A stretch of 64,000 bases of DNA from a candidate division WOR-3 bacterium (GTDB lineage Bacteria > Hydrothermota > Tepidihabitantia > Tepidihabitantales > Tepidihabitantaceae), in contig CBFGJV010000002.1 of assembly GCA_965649205.1 (NCBI GenBank), positions 1 through 64,000 of the forward strand, written 5' to 3'. Position numbers: made by a program. Below, piece after piece: positions 30,001-39,000 of the stretch. The first letter of the stretch is position 1. Each line of letters begins with the position of its first letter.

Positions 30001-33000
30001 TCGCAAGTCCGGCGGTTTACCCGTTGACTGGCATCGAGGAGTCGTCGCGAGAGCGTCCGGCCAGAACAGCTGGACTGAGTGCCGAGCCCAGCTTGGTGCG
30101 TACTGCCGGTATGGTGAAGTGGCAGGTGCCGGTGGCTGGCAAAGTCACGGTGCGTGTAATAGACAAGACGGGCCGTACGGTGCGTACGCTGCAGAATGGT
30201 TATCAGAATTCTGGACGCTACTCAGCGACATGGGATGGCACCGATGAGCAAGGCAGACGTCTGGCTCCCGGTGTCTACTTCTACCGACTGGATGCTCCCC
30301 AGTGCCAAGACATCCAGAAGGCAGTACTCCTCAGTCGCTAGGAACGAGAAACTCCGGACTCAGGCGGCGCTCGAAAGGCGCCGCCTCTTTATTTCTTTTT
30401 TGGTTCCATTTTGGCCAGGTGCGTTTTGGGCACAATTATTGCATATGAAGTATTGTCTATAAACGAGAGCTAAATTAAGTGTCTCTGAGACTGGTAGCTA
30501 ACGGCTGAGTTTTATAAGATAAAAAAAGAGAGGACAAACCGTAATGAAAAGATTGTTATTGATTACGCTTGTATTCGCGTTGGCTCTTGGCCAGACGGAA
30601 CGCTGGGTATATCGCTACAACGGAACGGGCAACTTCTGGGATGAAGCCTACCAAATATGTGTTGGTCCAGACGGCAACATTTATGTGGCAGGATACGGAT
30701 CCGGAAGTGGCACAGGCTATGATTTCATAGTAGTAAGTCTCACGCCCTCAGGTGGGCAAAGATGGGTCTATCGCTACAACGGCCCGGGAGATTCCACTGA
30801 TTGTGCGACATCTATTGTGTGCGGCGGGGATGGAAACATCTACGCGGGCGGATACAGTTATGCGCGGACCACCGGTTTTGATTTCACGGTGATAAGTCTT
30901 ACTCCAGGCGGCAGTCAGCGCTGGGTGTATCGCTACTCCGGGTCGCAGGATTCGACGGACTGTGCCTATTCTGTCGCCTGGGGTGCGGACGGAAACGTAT
31001 ATGCGGCCGGGTTTCTTTATCGAGCCGGAGCCGGGCGTGACTTCGCGGTTATCAGTTTGACCGCTGCCGGAGTGGAACGCTGGGTTTATCGTTATAACGG
31101 ACCAGCCGGAAGAACCGACTGCGCTTATGCAGTTGCCTGCGGTCCGGACAATAACATCTACGCGGCAGGAACCAGCTTTGGCTCTGGCACCTACGGAGAT
31201 TTCACCGTAATCAGTCTTGCATCACCGCCAGGCGTGGCCGAAAACAAACCTGTGCTGGAGAAACCGGCAGAGTGGTTTGAGGCAAAGGTCCGAGACCGCC
31301 TACTGCAATACTCGTTCAGACTTAAACAAGAAATGGTTGTGACGCTTTCTCTTTACGACCTGCAGGGAAGAGAAGTAGCTACGTGGCAGGTCAACGCCCC
31401 TGCAGGTGACTCAAGACACGCGCAGAACGTGGAACAACTGCCTCCCGGAGCCTACTTTCTGCGCGCGGCAGTTTCCGGTAGAGAAGGAGTTGCCACGCGT
31501 AAACTTATCGCTGTCAAATGAACGATAGGAACAAAGAACAGTGGAAAGTATTTATAAAGCATTCAATCTCAGGAGGTGGCTCATTAGATATATATACATT
31601 GATACAACTCATGGCCGTGCTTATGGGTCTTGGATTTGTTTGGCCTGCCCGGGTCCAGGCAGGCGGGGCCGGCTTGGTTGCTTCGCTCAGCACGAAAATT
31701 ATCACCGCCGATTCCGGTAAACTCTTGCTAGAAGTAAGCGGAATCGCCCCGGACACGACAGACTGGTTGGGTATTTCCTTCTATTTGCCTGGGTATACCA
31801 ACCCGACCTGGCAGGCTGAGCATGCAGTGTATCCTGTTAAGAAGGGGCAATTCAAAAACTCCTATCCTGTACCGGCCGGGTATGAAAAAGGGTCTTATGA
31901 AGTTGCACTCTGGAAGGAGAAACTTGCAGAAAAATGGTTCTACCTGCCAGCAGGGATGCGTGGGTACGGCACCGGCTGGTTAAAGACCGGCGCCGTGAAG
32001 ATAACTCTCGCCGACACGATAGCGCCACTCAAAACTGAAATAGTAACGGTGAACGGTTCGAAGATGCTTAAAATCAGTGGCAACGCACCGGACAAAGTTA
32101 ACTGGCTAGGCATTTCTTTCTACAAGGAGAAATACGTTGATGCGGTGCTGGACGGCGAGTACCAGATGCTTTCCCTCCCCCGCGGCAGGTTTTCGCAGAC
32201 CATTCCCATACCTAAGGGTTACGAAACCGGCTCCTACGAAGTTGCGGTGTGGCAGAAGGTTATTTCCCGGAAGCGGGTATTCCGGCTGGGTACTCAGCTG
32301 GCATACAAAGAAGGCAAGATTGGAGAGTAAAACGTGGCACAGAGACAATCAAAATTGAAGAGTTTGTATTTGTCCGATAGTGGTTTCTTGTTCGATCCCT
32401 ACACCGGTCTGACCTATGGTTTGAACGAGACCGGGGCGACCATTCTGCGGTGGTTGCGTGAGGGACTGGACAAGAGTTCGGTTGCGAAGAAGTTGACCGA
32501 AGAGTTCGACGTACCGCTAGAAACCGCCCAAGCGGATGTTGAGGAGTTCTACGACCGGTTACAGCAACAGGGGCTGCTATGGACAAGATAGATTTTGCCG
32601 TTACTGGTCTGCACGCAACGGACAATCCTGCTCCGGGGATAGCGGTAATACGTGCGATTCGTTCAGCGCCGCAGTGGCAGGGTAAGGTCGTGGGCTTGGC
32701 ATATGATGCATTGGACACAGGTATTTACGACCCGGAGTTATGCGACCGGGTTTTCTTGATTCCTTATGCGACCGAGGGTGAACGAGCACTTCTGGCCCGG
32801 TTGGAATACATCTATAGCGTTCAGCCGTTCTCGGTCTTGATCCCGACGCTCGATGCTGAACTCACCGGTTTCATCCGTCTGCGGCACGAACTTGAGCCTA
32901 TGGGCATTCGCATGCTCCTGCCTACTGAGGAACAACTGGGTCTGCGGTCCAAGCAGAGGCTGGGCGATTTTGCCCACAGTCACGGTATACCCTTTCTCGC

Positions 33001-36000: not shown

Positions 36001-39000
36001 AGTCAGGGCATACGTGGTAAAGAGACACACAAAGGCCGATTGGCTTATGCGTGGGACTTCCAGGTGCAGGATGAACGCGGCCGTACCTTTCAGACTCCCG
36101 GGTATAGACTGAGCGATTATTACGCATTTGGGCTTCCGGTGTGCGCGCCGGCTCCGGGTCGGGTGGTAGCCGTAGAAAATGAAATACCGGACAATCCGCC
36201 TGGCAAATTAAACAAAGAGAAAAATTGGGGCAACTACGTAGTGATAGAACACAACGCTGTGGAGTATTCAATTCTTGCTCACCTGCAACAGGGGTCGGTA
36301 AAGGTGAAGAAGGGCGACAAAGTGGCCGCGGGCACGGTTATCGGACTGTGCGGCAACTCCGGATATTCCGGCCAGCCGCACTTACACTACCAACTGCAGG
36401 ACGGCCCAATACCAGGTAGTGATACGTTGGCGACGGAATTTCACAATTACTTGGTGCTGGAACGCGGGCAAGAACGTTTCGTGCCCCGCGGCCGGACGCG
36501 AGAGGGAGAAGTGGTTAGGCCAGCATCGCCTTCTGAAATGCGAGCCGCGTTATGAGCCTGCTGATTGTTCTACTGTTTTTTGCGCGGACCGAGTCAGGGG
36601 AACTGAGTTCTGAATACTTGGCTGCTATCAGACGCGCAGACAGTCTGTACTGGGCCGGCCGGTACCAGGCGGCCCTGATTGCTTACGAAACCGCGCAAAA
36701 TATTCTGCCCGACGAACCTGGGCCCCAGGTTGGTATCGGCTGGACTCTGTTGCGCATGTCTGAGTACGCGCGTGCCGAAGAGGTTCTGCGCCGGGTGCTT
36801 GAGCTTCACCCGGACAACGAACAAGCCCGCAGGGGCCTCGCGCTTCTGCCTTTGTTCTACCGCGTCAGGTTGACGGCTACGCTGACCGGCAGTTCTGACG
36901 CGGCGCGCATCCTGGCTGGTTTCCTTGAGTACAACCACCTATTTCGGACAACTTTCACCGTTGGCGTCCAGAACATCTCCTTACGCGGCGGCTGGAACGG
37001 AATGAACGCCGCGCTGGTTGTTTTTCACCGTTTGCGTTATCCCTGGTCTGTTCGGCTCGACGTTTTTCTCTTGGCCTCAACCAGCGACCGTGCTTATCGC
37101 AGATACGTCTACGCGCCTTCCTTAGGATATCGTTGGCGCGAATGGAATACACGCGCCGTTTGCTTCGGCTGGGACCGGCTGGGCACGGTTGGCCTACAAC
37201 TAGACATCCAGCATCCCCTGCCGTTTGGCCTGGACTTCCACGCCACGCCGACGCTTAACCGTTCGGGTGATTCTCTGGGGTGGTTCATTCCCGCCTCGGT
37301 CAGCCGGCAGCTGACGCCCTATCTGCGCACTCAGGCCATGGCCGGCTGGGGCTCCATTGCGGATTACATTGACCTTGATGTACCAGCGCTCTACAACCAG
37401 TGGGAACGCTTCACGGCGACTGCCCGGCTTGGGGCCGATGCTACCATTGTCCGCAGGTTCCGTCTCGCCGCCTTCGTCACTTGGGAGAAATACAGCACTT
37501 CCCATAGTATTTTCCTTTCTTTTGTCCTTTCGGCTCGTTTCTAGTGGGTACGGACTGAAAAAAAAGAGGTGTCGCCTGCTCAAAGGCGACACCTGTTTGG
37601 AGATAGCGGTTTTTAGAACTTCACTACCTTCTGTCGGTAACCAGCCTCGCCTGTTTCCAGACGGATAAAGTATACGCCGGGAGCAACGTTGCGTGTGTTC
37701 CAGAGTAGTTTATGTTGTCCTGCCGGTCTAGCCTCGTCGGTTAGACACTCTACTTCGCGTCCGGCTGCGTCCAGAACCGAGATACGCACCCGGCCAGCTT
37801 TGGTCAGTTGGTAGTTTATTCCTGTCTGGCTAGCAAAAGGATTAGGTTTTACTGCCAGTACGATTTCTTTTGCTTCGGCGGGCGTGCGGGGTCCGGCCAG
37901 ACCTACATTGCGGTCATACCAGGACTGGGCCGAATCGGCGTTCTGGCGAATTTCACTTCCGCTAGTTCCACCAACAAAGGCGATGGCGAAATGCTGACGT
38001 GCGCCAGGTGACAGATTGAAGGGGCCGGAGGAAACGCATATAGACCAGTCGTAGGCTCGGTTGGAATTAGGCTGGCTGATGGTTCCGTTCAGAAACCTCC
38101 ACTTCTGGCCGTCGGTCATACAGGAGTCTGGATAAACATAACGAGCGTGGTCAATTGCGGCTGTCCGAGCGCCGGTGGTGGGAGAAAGTATTTTGACTCC
38201 AACTGAAGGATTGGCACTGGTAGATGGTCGCATGAAGGCAAGTCTGCGGGACACATCGCTGGAGCAGATGTTGGCTGTGGCTGTACCGATGTCAAAGTCC
38301 GCGATTATGCCGGCGTACATGCCGTTGACCGCAGAAGAGCCATTGTTGGTAATGTCGAAAGTCATTACCACGAAGTCATCGTAACCCGGCGAAGCTACTT
38401 GATAACTTTGCTGGGTGACGACTATGCCCTTGGCTGCGGGATGTCCGGCATCAGAATACGAGCCGCGGAAATGCTGGTCTGCGCCATTAGCCGGAGGCAT
38501 GACCGGCCGCAAACTTTCTTGCGGCATCAGGTCTTGATTAGGCGCGCCCGAGGCAGGGCGGCTGAAGAAACGGTCGGCCAGATATGTTTCGCTGTTGCCC
38601 ATGGCAAAGCTGCTGTAGAACAGCTGGCTGGCACCGGTTTTGGGATAACAGAAGCCAGCGCCAGCATCCAGTCCGGGTGGTACATCATAGCCGATAGAAC
38701 CCTGACAGGACACGGTGAGCTTGCAGTAACCGGTGTCATGGGTCATAAGCAGTTCACCCTGTACCGGCGGCTGACCTACTACCAGGCTGAAGGTGGTTGT
38801 GAAGGTGGTCTCATCGCAGACAAGGAAGAGGCTGAAAGGCACGCTTCTGCCTTCCGGACAGTTACCAGCAACAAGCAGACCGAAAAGGTCCCCGCTGTTA
38901 TTTGCACTGTCGCGGCCGGCTATGTTACCGAAGTTTGCGGTGGAATCGGTCAGAACCAGATAGGGATCAGAGGTGCGCAAGGTGCCGCGCACATTCGTCG

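Follow-up and report, generated by a model that had tools for sequence, protein, structure and literature searches.

A widespread bacterial gene set in which the N-terminal arm of a decarboxylase may act as carrier next to a urea-transporter-like channel fused to a peptidase

An ATP-grasp ligase paired with a fold-III decarboxylase, as found at the locus described here, is known from the closthioamide CtaD/CtaF/CtaE and butirosin BtrJ/BtrK/BtrI systems. In these systems the side-chain carboxyl of Asp or Glu becomes linked to a carrier, on which the residue is decarboxylated, a cycle repeated by CtaD/CtaF (PMC7183216, PMC7857480); the published pairs work solely on tethered substrate (PMC7183216). 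The closest solved decarboxylase belongs to the FigA/FigC (FslA/FslC) rhizoferrin route and shares its Thr/Tyr specificity helix and its Cys-Met loop with the enzyme found here; FigC acts on the side-chain amide of an amino acid (PMC7857480). Discrete RREs with an Asn/Asp/Phe pocket and a YxxPx[ILV] partner motif, again in common with the present locus, are represented by the lasso B1 proteins TbiB1, TfuB1 and PbaB1 and by LppB/LppA (PMC13381572); in fosfazinomycin the YxxP peptide FzmZ scaffolds a small molecule (PMC13622209). UT/SLC14 channels (DvUT, UT-B) match the channel described below over the complete fold and at the Phe and Asn positions of the pore. Synthase-dependent polymer export (PgaA, BcsC, PelB, AlgK/E) likewise places a periplasmic TPR and an outer-membrane barrel by an inner-membrane conduit (PMC9384988).

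The window analysed (the whole stretch of 64,000 nucleotides from a candidate division WOR-3 bacterium) contains the six-gene cluster listed in Table 1. All six reading frames were recovered at the coordinates of a preliminary description, and its same-strand cluster is real. A repeated Pfam search returned UT at residues 15-284 (1e-38) and Peptidase_M23 at 372-461 (4.8e-17) in the same protein, again as described, together with PqqD, ATPgrasp_Ter, Orn_Arg_deC_N and TPR in the cluster. The hairpin downstream is the predicted end of the cluster unit; taken alone the terminator call is weak, because 12 sites were found against 8.2 expected by chance.

Table 1. Features of the cluster, with positions along the window; the six reading frames abut or overlap.
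Feature	Position	Strand	Remarks
g00156	31518..32330	+	secreted protein, two similar beta-rich repeats
RRE	32334..32591	+	discrete, PqqD-like, lasso B1 type; Pfam PqqD 2e-15
ATP-grasp ligase	32579..33631	+	PRK12767-like, below all cut-offs; Pfam ATPgrasp_Ter
g00159	33624..35003	+	fold-III PLP decarboxylase, nearest FigC/FslC
Leader-like motif Y12-S-K-P15-S-I17	33657..33674	+	disordered N-terminal arm of the decarboxylase
15-nt tandem duplication	33696..33725	+	14/15 identical; two candidate carrier lysines
UT-M23	35017..36555	+	UT-fold channel (about residues 1-312) and C-terminal M23 metallopeptidase; M23 predicted cytoplasmic
g00161	36552..37544	+	signal-like start, short TPR (Pfam), putative outer-membrane beta-barrel ending in Phe
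GC-rich hairpin with T-run	37567..37594	minus	terminator-like; between the cluster and a convergent S8 peptidase gene

The gene set is widespread among bacteria and undescribed. Its core, consisting of the RRE, the ATP-grasp ligase, the FigC-like decarboxylase and UT-M23, occurs in one order across many phyla. Among UT-M23-anchored loci with at least 3.2 kb of upstream sequence, all four core genes were present in 66 of 69, far above chance and in line with the conserved linkage reported earlier, and the order was identical in 71 of 71 UT-M23-anchored loci. When the ATP-grasp gene served as anchor, the RRE was found in 74/75 loci, the decarboxylase in 77/77 and UT in 63/64. Genome scans yielded at least 546-596 confirmed stretches. 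Within the phylum Hydrothermota, 13 of 272 genomes carry full-length UT-M23 and 13 of 272 the decarboxylase orthologue (12 common to both), and four of these genomes come from other members of the same order. No paper describing this gene set was found.

The preliminary description had noted that no precursor peptide gene was found. A free peptide was not found here either; a separate precursor is not needed in our view, because the likely partner of the RRE is the decarboxylase's own N-terminal arm, and the missing precursor appears to be this disordered segment (pLDDT below 50 for residues 13-35). The lasso-type YxxPx[ILV] motif was present in 176 of 176 decarboxylase arms and in 77 of 77 of a second set, and absent from the genome's three other fold-III enzymes as well as from four LysA-like paralogues. 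An arm profile searched against the genome and 92 loci matched the decarboxylase only; most of the short YxxP reading frames near the clusters overlap other genes from within, and no independent gene of this kind recurs, although a peptide that is highly divergent or encoded far away could have escaped this search.

A lysine follows the motif Tyr at a distance of 15 residues in 173/176 and 77/77 arms, and among 76 divergent arms it stands at +15 in 69 and at +16 in two (the sets of 176, 77 and 76 overlap partly). In 158 arms of the 176-arm set it lies 26 residues before a conserved G[ST]P. The tandem duplication in the window yields K27, 15 residues after Tyr12, and K32, which precedes the conserved GSP by 26 residues; close relatives have a single copy of the unit. 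In a divergent double-ATP-grasp subtype the lysine is kept in 15/15 arms, though the surrounding sequence differs. Lys is lacking at both +15 and +16 in five of the 76 divergent arms (L223, L260, L273, L281, L292) and in protein P0231; the catalytic residues of the ligase are intact in all six cases, as are the M23 ligands in the three cases that have M23.

The best PDB matches of the RRE were TbiB1, TfuB1, PbaB1 and LppB. Across 60 sequences N31 is invariant and D68, F72 and L76 are conserved in at least 90%; they align with LppB N33, D70, F74 and M78, which bind Tyr and Pro in LppB (PMC13381572). The YxxP-binding pocket is thus kept, and binding is predicted. A modelled RRE-arm complex scored 0.50, with a best control of 0.02, and its runs had at least 93% of contacts in common and a partner pLDDT of at least 54. 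In calibration, 116 of 157 solved pairs and 2 of 215 mismatched ones passed the score mark, but those that passed at 0.60 or below comprised only 18 solved pairs and both mismatches. RRE-leader complexes have already been solved, so the pass may reflect structures memorised by the predictor, and the model lends weak support.

The decarboxylase had been described as a second paralogue; the genome has three further fold-III decarboxylases elsewhere, so g00159 is one of four. It matched 7kh2 at 211 bits, the best DAPDC at 154 and BtrK at only about 77, and the fold comparison gave TMq 0.82. K94 (PLP) and C383 are kept, and the specificity residues are T355, W358, Y359, M384, N385, I386 and Q416, with roles assigned from PMC7857480. 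The pocket is FigC-like, lacking any Arg or acidic side chain that would accommodate a free distal charge. Two identities were rejected. For LysA, TIGR01048 gave 203.6 bits (cut-off 297.9), and in an alignment to 2p3e T355 replaces the specificity-helix Arg and M384 the Glu that follows the catalytic Cys and has a functional role in DAPDC. For the N-citrylornithine decarboxylase FslC/FigC, NF041039 gave 236.5 bits (cut-off 500), the citrate-binding His357/Arg387 are Ile386/Gln416, and an NIS synthetase partner is missing. In the ATP-grasp ligase, catalytic K125, K165, E266, E280, N282 and R284 are invariant. Fusions of ligase with decarboxylase (P0231) and of RRE with ligase (P0265) were also seen.

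The AlphaFold2 model of UT-M23 (pLDDT 91.6) superimposed on DvUT with Z 39.2 and rmsd 2.8 over 303 aligned residues, and on M23 domains with Z of about 14. The UT domain scored 105 bits (cut-off 274.6). Sequence comparison covered 88 homologues of at least 600 aa, which carry a C-terminal part of at least 150 aa (median 187) that the window protein lacks; the proteins of two close relatives are likewise 512 aa long. The ten-helix fold is present, and Phe and Asn are kept at the pore positions, with F26, F132 and F174 in 84-88 of 88. The Thr pair of the Sm site, whose role is described in PMC3869693 and whose positions were mapped through the DvUT alignment, is not kept: the window protein has G129 and I271, Thr occurs in only 3/88 and 13/88, and the first is Ser in 78/88. 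No Urease_alpha match was found in the genome (97.95% complete). The earlier view that the cluster is not for urease-linked urea uptake or for lysine synthesis stands, on the lost Thr pair and on a decarboxylase without the DAPDC Arg and acidic residue.

The termini of UT are intracellular (PMC3869693). M23 comes after the tenth UT helix and, given the positive-inside pattern across 89 sequences, should face the cytoplasm; this predicted placement rules against an exported, peptidoglycan-acting M23 and had been overlooked, as had the outer-membrane barrel. The concern that the peptidase might be inactive is not borne out: H338, D347, H422, H455 and H457 are invariant in 88/88, and the domain is not dead by its metal and catalytic residues, from which activity is predicted. 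Its first motif, described before as not obvious, is probably present as H338-x8-D347 (invariant in 88/88 and 55/55), not as a literal HXXXD. LasA-type M23 enzymes have a longer spacing in this motif. H422 and H455-x-H457 align to ShyA and lysostaphin.

In the sister double-ligase subtype a SIR2 sirtuin replaces M23 on UT in all 14 loci with room for it. The catalytic His is present in nine of these domains and Tyr stands instead in five. Sirtuins are lysine deacylases that release acyl-ADP-ribose, not free acid. A GNAT gene lies upstream in five sirtuin loci.

The two-repeat architecture of g00156 was confirmed, its halves aligning with one another at HH prob 99 and with family 9 from other loci at 98-99; the true start is probably downstream, at ATG 31611, ahead of a signal-like stretch. 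The gene occupies the place held elsewhere by a short periplasmic TPR gene. In a first set of 53 loci, 14 have family 9 and 32 the short TPR; in a second set of 51 the figures are 2 and 46, and the two never occur together in either set. For g00161 the TPR assignment was correct as far as it went, and a probable outer-membrane beta-barrel is to be added. By language-model features 29 of its 30 named atlas matches were YaiO (score 0.95, 169/256 features common), a lead only, and the profile link to barrels of other loci was weak (HH prob at most 33). Barrels were seen in 45/53 and 38/51 loci of the two sets, and neither barrel nor TPR was found near three cyanobacteria-like loci.

The proposal of a ligate-decarboxylate pathway tied to UT-M23 is supported, with its reservation about the peptidase removed and its precursor and PqqD-partner part altered. 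We see an even chance that the cluster encodes a carrier-based amide assembly line that uses the tail of the decarboxylase itself as carrier and frees the product at the inner mouth of the channel. The RRE would grip YxxPx[ILV] on the arm and bring the +15 Lys to the ATP-grasp enzyme; this ligase would couple the epsilon-amine of that Lys to the side-chain carboxyl of an amino acid, gamma-Glu or beta-Asp being the most likely. By analogy with CtaD/CtaF and BtrJ/BtrK, the tethered residue would then lose its alpha-carboxyl at the PLP site and become a 4-aminobutyryl or beta-alanyl amide, with a new amine open to further extension. The cytoplasmic M23, or the sirtuin in the sister subtype, would cleave the acyl-Lys bond. 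In the least certain step, the product may leave through the altered UT pore and, in most loci, via the periplasmic TPR or repeat protein and the outer-membrane barrel.

The Tyr-Lys register, the 26-residue reach, disorder, the pocket match, the sirtuin swap and the FigC-like pocket count for the arm as carrier. Against it count the six Lys-less homologues with intact enzymes, Tyr for the catalytic His in 5/14 sirtuins, the absence of barrel or TPR in some loci, the acyl-ADP-ribose product of sirtuins, and a zwitterion that fits the 2-3 Å UT pore poorly. A bacterial nylon synthase, in which rounds of ligation and decarboxylation on the arm Lys would build unbranched poly- or oligo-(4-aminobutyrate) or (beta-alanine), a polyamide without side chains that is freed by M23, threads the de-threonined pore and reaches the surface by TPR and barrel, seems distinctly unlikely; its export route is what invites the comparison with synthase-dependent polymer export.

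A reversible switch would also fit the Lys register and the exchange of M23 for a sirtuin: RRE and ATP-grasp would place an acyl mark on the arm Lys to toggle the decarboxylase, and the channel-tethered M23 or sirtuin would erase it according to a small solute sensed by UT. Sirtuins erase regulatory acyl-Lys marks, a GNAT gene accompanies five of them, the pore Phe and Asn are kept and the core also occurs with neither barrel nor TPR; yet such a switch explains neither the decarboxylase substrate, although the pocket seems fit for a tethered amide, nor the fixed 26-residue reach and frequent barrel/TPR partners, and we hold it to be unlikely. A comparably small chance is given to the arm being a docking tag, by which the RRE ties ligase and decarboxylase together while a free small amide or amine is made, as by FigA/FigC. 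The Lys would then be a binding or autoinhibitory residue, with M23 trimming the product or clipping the arm. The six Lys-less arms that keep motif and intact enzymes, the P0231 and P0265 fusions, the free small molecule used by FigC as nearest characterised enzyme, and the closeness of +15 to the end of the LppA leader (Tyr at -16) speak for docking, whereas a Lys at fixed offset across unlike arms speaks against it and the swap to a lysine deacylase is hard to explain by it. Import of urea, ammonia or a small amide through barrel and UT, or editing of peptidoglycan by M23, would draw on the complete UT fold (Z 39), the wall-hydrolase fold of M23 and the barrel; with no urease found, the pore Thr pair lost (Ser 78/88; Thr 13/88) and an M23 that is predicted cytoplasmic and exchangeable for a sirtuin, it is highly improbable.

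If the arm is the carrier, the RRE serves the enzyme's own tail and not a precursor peptide, which would account for a group of 'orphan' RRE clusters thrown out by genome mining. Many proteins annotated as 'urea transporter' or 'diaminopimelate decarboxylase' in hundreds of species would have a non-urea role.

Compared with the described systems, the locus differs from lasso and FzmZ pathways in that an enzyme of 450 residues carries the motif as its N-terminus, with no free precursor, and neither a B2 protease nor a lasso cyclase occurs as a recurring neighbour family in 92 loci. It differs from FigC in having no alignment over the arm, a score of 236 bits against the cut-off of 500 and no NIS synthetase, and from UT/SLC14 channels in the lost Sm-site Thr pair, the fused hydrolase and a genome without urease. 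With respect to polymer export, the TPR is short, the barrel is YaiO-like by features alone and the module is missing at some loci; no glycosyltransferase recurs near the loci, and the combination of a GT2 synthase, a TPR and a 16-strand porin is absent. Among the clustered reading frames, all of at least 70 aa, no phosphopantetheinyl carrier gene recurs, and the RRE, without an invariant Ser, is the sole recurring small protein. Where the Cta and Btr pairs work on a carrier, the proposed tether here is a Lys on the RRE-recruited arm of the decarboxylase, accompanied by an extra channel-fused hydrolase, TPR and barrel; if true, this self-borne Lys would be a third carrier logic besides thioester carriers and free scaffold peptides.

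A re-check of open reading frames and domains in the window confirmed the six genes of the preliminary description, namely g00156 (repeat protein), g00157 (PqqD-like RRE), g00158 (ATP-grasp ligase), g00159 (decarboxylase), g00160 (UT-M23, a urea-channel-like domain fused to an M23 peptidase) and g00161 (TPR and barrel). The lack of urease stated there was also borne out, with no urease match in the genome, which encodes three fold-III decarboxylases beyond that of the cluster. The G+C content of the cluster (0.535–0.566) was similar to that of the remainder of the window, and its distribution among kin was patchy, with one of the family's 43 other genomes carrying it. 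In the phylum, the marker genes UT-M23 and decarboxylase were found in 13 genomes each, 12 of them in common. A promoter scan gave a result at chance level.

As annotated, g00156 starts ahead of an AT-rich stretch. This start was probably mis-called, since an AGGAGG motif and a signal-like sequence beginning near an ATG are found further downstream. On either side of the cluster lie genes for secreted proteins whose C-terminal domains are of the FlgD/Por type (a repeat protein, a propeller-like repeat protein and an S8 peptidase); these genes do not recur alongside the cluster.

Three partly overlapping sets of loci were gathered, within which related genomes are not independent. Set 1 (92 loci) was anchored on UT-M23 and set 2 (80 loci) on the ligase, while set 3 followed from a profile search that brought up tandem double ligases, 16 of its 78 new loci being of the double-ligase type. 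In set 1, 71 loci had all four core genes, always arranged as RRE, ligase, decarboxylase and UT-M23 (71/71), and the core was complete in 66 of the 69 loci with enough upstream DNA. The corresponding values in set 2 were 74/75 for RRE, 77/77 for the decarboxylase and 63/64 for UT. Five genomes in which UT-M23 was isolated or bordered a contig end were checked, and all of them had the decarboxylase orthologue.

According to record titles, the loci belong to Bacteroidota, Ignavibacteria, Myxococcota, Aquificota, Desulfobacterota, Marinimicrobia, Cloacimonadota, cyanobacteria, Proteobacteria and others. Cultured non-pathogens with such loci include Thermodesulfatator autotrophicus (L125), Minicystis rosea (L075) and Scytonema (L283), as well as Colwellia (L250), which has the sirtuin subtype. 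The decarboxylase was detected in 23 of 201 sampled genomes from the phylum of genome G275, in 4 of 401 from the phylum of genome G278, and in none of 401 from the phylum of a Metabacillus. G278 is titled Actinomycetota, yet the neighbours of its cluster look cyanobacterial, and for this reason no conclusion about monoderms was drawn from it. The cluster and neighbours of locus L294 look cyanobacterial although it is titled Actinomycetota.

A scan with a single UT-M23 protein as query returned M23 relatives only, and no full-length fusion was found on the plasmids searched. Stand-alone relatives of the M23 domain are widespread, haloarchaea included (L030–L035; plasmid matches H1–H11). Insertions in individual loci (IF-2B-like, cytochrome c and aminotransferase genes, among others) showed no recurrence across phyla; an IF-2B-family gene lies between the decarboxylase and UT-M23 in four Bacteroidota-group loci (L056, L071, L078, L092). 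At two loci, UT-M23 and/or the decarboxylase appear broken or frameshifted, which suggests decay in some lineages.

An N-terminal arm was present in every decarboxylase orthologue with a proper start and absent from LysA-like paralogues. It carries the pattern [YFW]xxPx[ILVF]. Counted from the aromatic position, a Lys stood at +15 in 173 of 176 arms (179 minus three falsely anchored late-start records), and a Lys stood 26 residues ahead of a conserved G[ST]P in 158. All 77 arms of set 2 fitted both motif and register. P0166, an apparent frameshifted ligase-decarboxylase record, was omitted from the arm count. Residues 13–35 were disordered in the AF2 model. Through a tandem duplication of 15 nt, the arm encoded in the window has two MGKPG units, where close relatives have one, and hence two Lys, one per register.

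YxxP is a known RRE-binding motif in passages of PMC13381572 and PMC12710340, and the best solved matches of the RRE were lasso B1 proteins and LppB. Its conserved N31, D68, F72 and L76 align with LppB N33, D70, F74 and M78, which, according to a passage of PMC13381572, hold the Tyr, Pro and aliphatic residue of the leader. For the predicted complex of RRE and arm the score was 0.50, with 0.02 for the best control (shared contacts at least 93%, partner pLDDT at least 54), a result rated weak by the tool and to be read knowing that similar complexes are already solved. In calibration, the mark was reached by 116 of 157 solved pairs and by 2 of 215 mismatched ones. Of the solved pairs that passed, only 18 scored 0.60 or less, as did both of the mismatched ones. 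Because YxxP peptides of 22 residues readily escape notice, as a fosfazinomycin preprint (PMC13622209) cautions, short YxxP peptides were sought. The arm profile matched only the decarboxylase in the genome and loci, and no short YxxP ORF at the loci recurred as a gene of its own; within the reach of these searches a separate precursor was rejected, although a very divergent or distant peptide may have escaped them.

All catalytic residues of the ligase are retained, and it matched no named family above the cut-off. The decarboxylase was nearest to FigC; the specificity helix of the decarboxylase carries Thr, Trp and Tyr, and the citrate-binding His and Arg of FigC are absent from it. A passage of PMC7857480 gives Arg at the same helix position in DAPDC and Asp in ornithine enzymes. 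Such a site would suit an amino acid with an amide at the end of its side chain. Glu is mildly favoured over Asp as the ligated residue, since the gamma-glutamyl amide nitrogen would sit where that of N-citryl-ornithine does. In closthioamide formation, as outlined in PMC7183216, CtaD attaches Asp to a carrier via its side-chain carboxyl and CtaF decarboxylates it there, not free, in a repeating cycle; the butirosin pathway is described as using Glu in the same scheme.

The UT fold of g00160 is complete (Z 39); the pore Phe and Asn positions are retained and both Sm-site threonines (site role from PMC3869693) are lost. Since UT termini are intracellular (PMC3869693) and the charge pattern of UT-M23 agrees, the M23 domain is expected on the cytoplasmic side of the membrane, where it would not meet peptidoglycan. 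The earlier concern that the peptidase may be inactive was dispelled at the level of conservation, with H338, D347, H422, H455 and H457 invariant in 88/88 homologues. g00160 lacks a C-terminal part present in homologues, which belongs to no known family, had no Pfam or usable atlas match, and was not found anywhere else in the genome. Its M23 domain weakly matches NCBIfam PRK06148.

Double-ligase loci of set 3 retain the RRE and decarboxylase. Their arms differ in sequence, yet carry Lys at +15 or +16 from the aromatic residue in 15/15, and in all 14 loci with room the UT bears a SIR2 domain and no M23. The catalytic His is present in 9/14 of these fusions and replaced by Tyr in 5/14. This replacement of M23 by a protein-lysine deacylase is the best clue that an acyl-lysine on the arm is what is cleaved at the channel. 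At L226, L255 and L232, where the fused sirtuin has Tyr, a dienelactone-hydrolase-like protein either follows or forms part of the fusion, after a hydrophobic stretch. Two loci have another, free SIR2 gene close to the fusion, and a GNAT acetyltransferase with a 700–850 aa TPR protein lies upstream of the RRE in L221, L222, L228, L229 and L230.

Coordinates of features in the window and in compared loci
Feature	Sequence	Position
Six-gene cluster (+)	window	31518-37544
Secreted-protein flanks	window	28110-31521, 37613-40462
g00156 start region	window	31518-31611
AGGAGG	window	31571-31576
ATG near signal-like sequence	window	31611
Arm duplication	window	33696-33725
Dienelactone-hydrolase-like protein	L226	15312-16259
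Dienelactone-hydrolase-like protein	L255	15195-16094
Dienelactone-hydrolase-like protein	L232	13513-16203
Free SIR2 gene	L271	17089-17928
Free SIR2 gene	L272	8196-9041
Apparently broken or frameshifted UT-M23 and/or decarboxylase	L277	12452-13880
Apparently broken or frameshifted UT-M23 and/or decarboxylase	L292	11154-14746

Among envelope partners, a barrel-like gene was present in 45/53 loci of set 1 and 38/51 of set 2; for a short secreted TPR the counts were 32/53 and 46/51, respectively. Neither was seen in DNA fetched around three cyanobacteria-like loci. Homology links barrel families 5, 6 and 8 to one another (HH probability 93–96); the g00161 barrel, YaiO-like by features, has a weak link at best to barrel families of other loci (HH probability at most 33). 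Both halves of g00156 match a family that occurred in 14/53 loci, never together with the short TPR, and because this family often appears where the short TPR is missing, g00156 is taken to belong to the system.

Taken together, the decarboxylase may carry the substrate on its own arm Lys: the ligase would acylate this Lys, the tethered residue would be decarboxylated, and the product would be released at the channel by M23 or the sirtuin. This reading is given about an even chance, since Lys is missing at the arm site in 5 of the 76 set 3 arms, L223 and L273 included, and in protein P0231, the five UT-sirtuins with Tyr look inactive, and export genes (barrel, TPR) are not universal. In the six Lys-less cases the ligase residues are intact (6/6), as are the M23 ligands in all three that have M23; co-decay of either was checked and none was seen. 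That the arm is purely a docking tag is considered unlikely, and a switch by reversible modification of the arm Lys is equally doubtful. Uptake or wall editing is regarded as very improbable.

In full-text searches of the literature, no description of the cassette or the UT-sirtuin fusion was found, and the words decarboxylase, urea and M23 are absent from the main text of the RRE surveys PMC12710340 and PMC7470986; loci may be listed in supplements, external datasets or subscription papers. In its logic the cluster resembles CtaD/CtaF and BtrJ/BtrK, combined with a leader recognition of the lasso type. It falls outside each of these classes, and outside the UT urea channels: unlike CtaD/CtaF and BtrJ/BtrK, it has no thioester carrier; unlike lasso-peptide clusters, it has neither a free precursor nor a cyclase; and in contrast to urea channels, its UT has lost the threonines.
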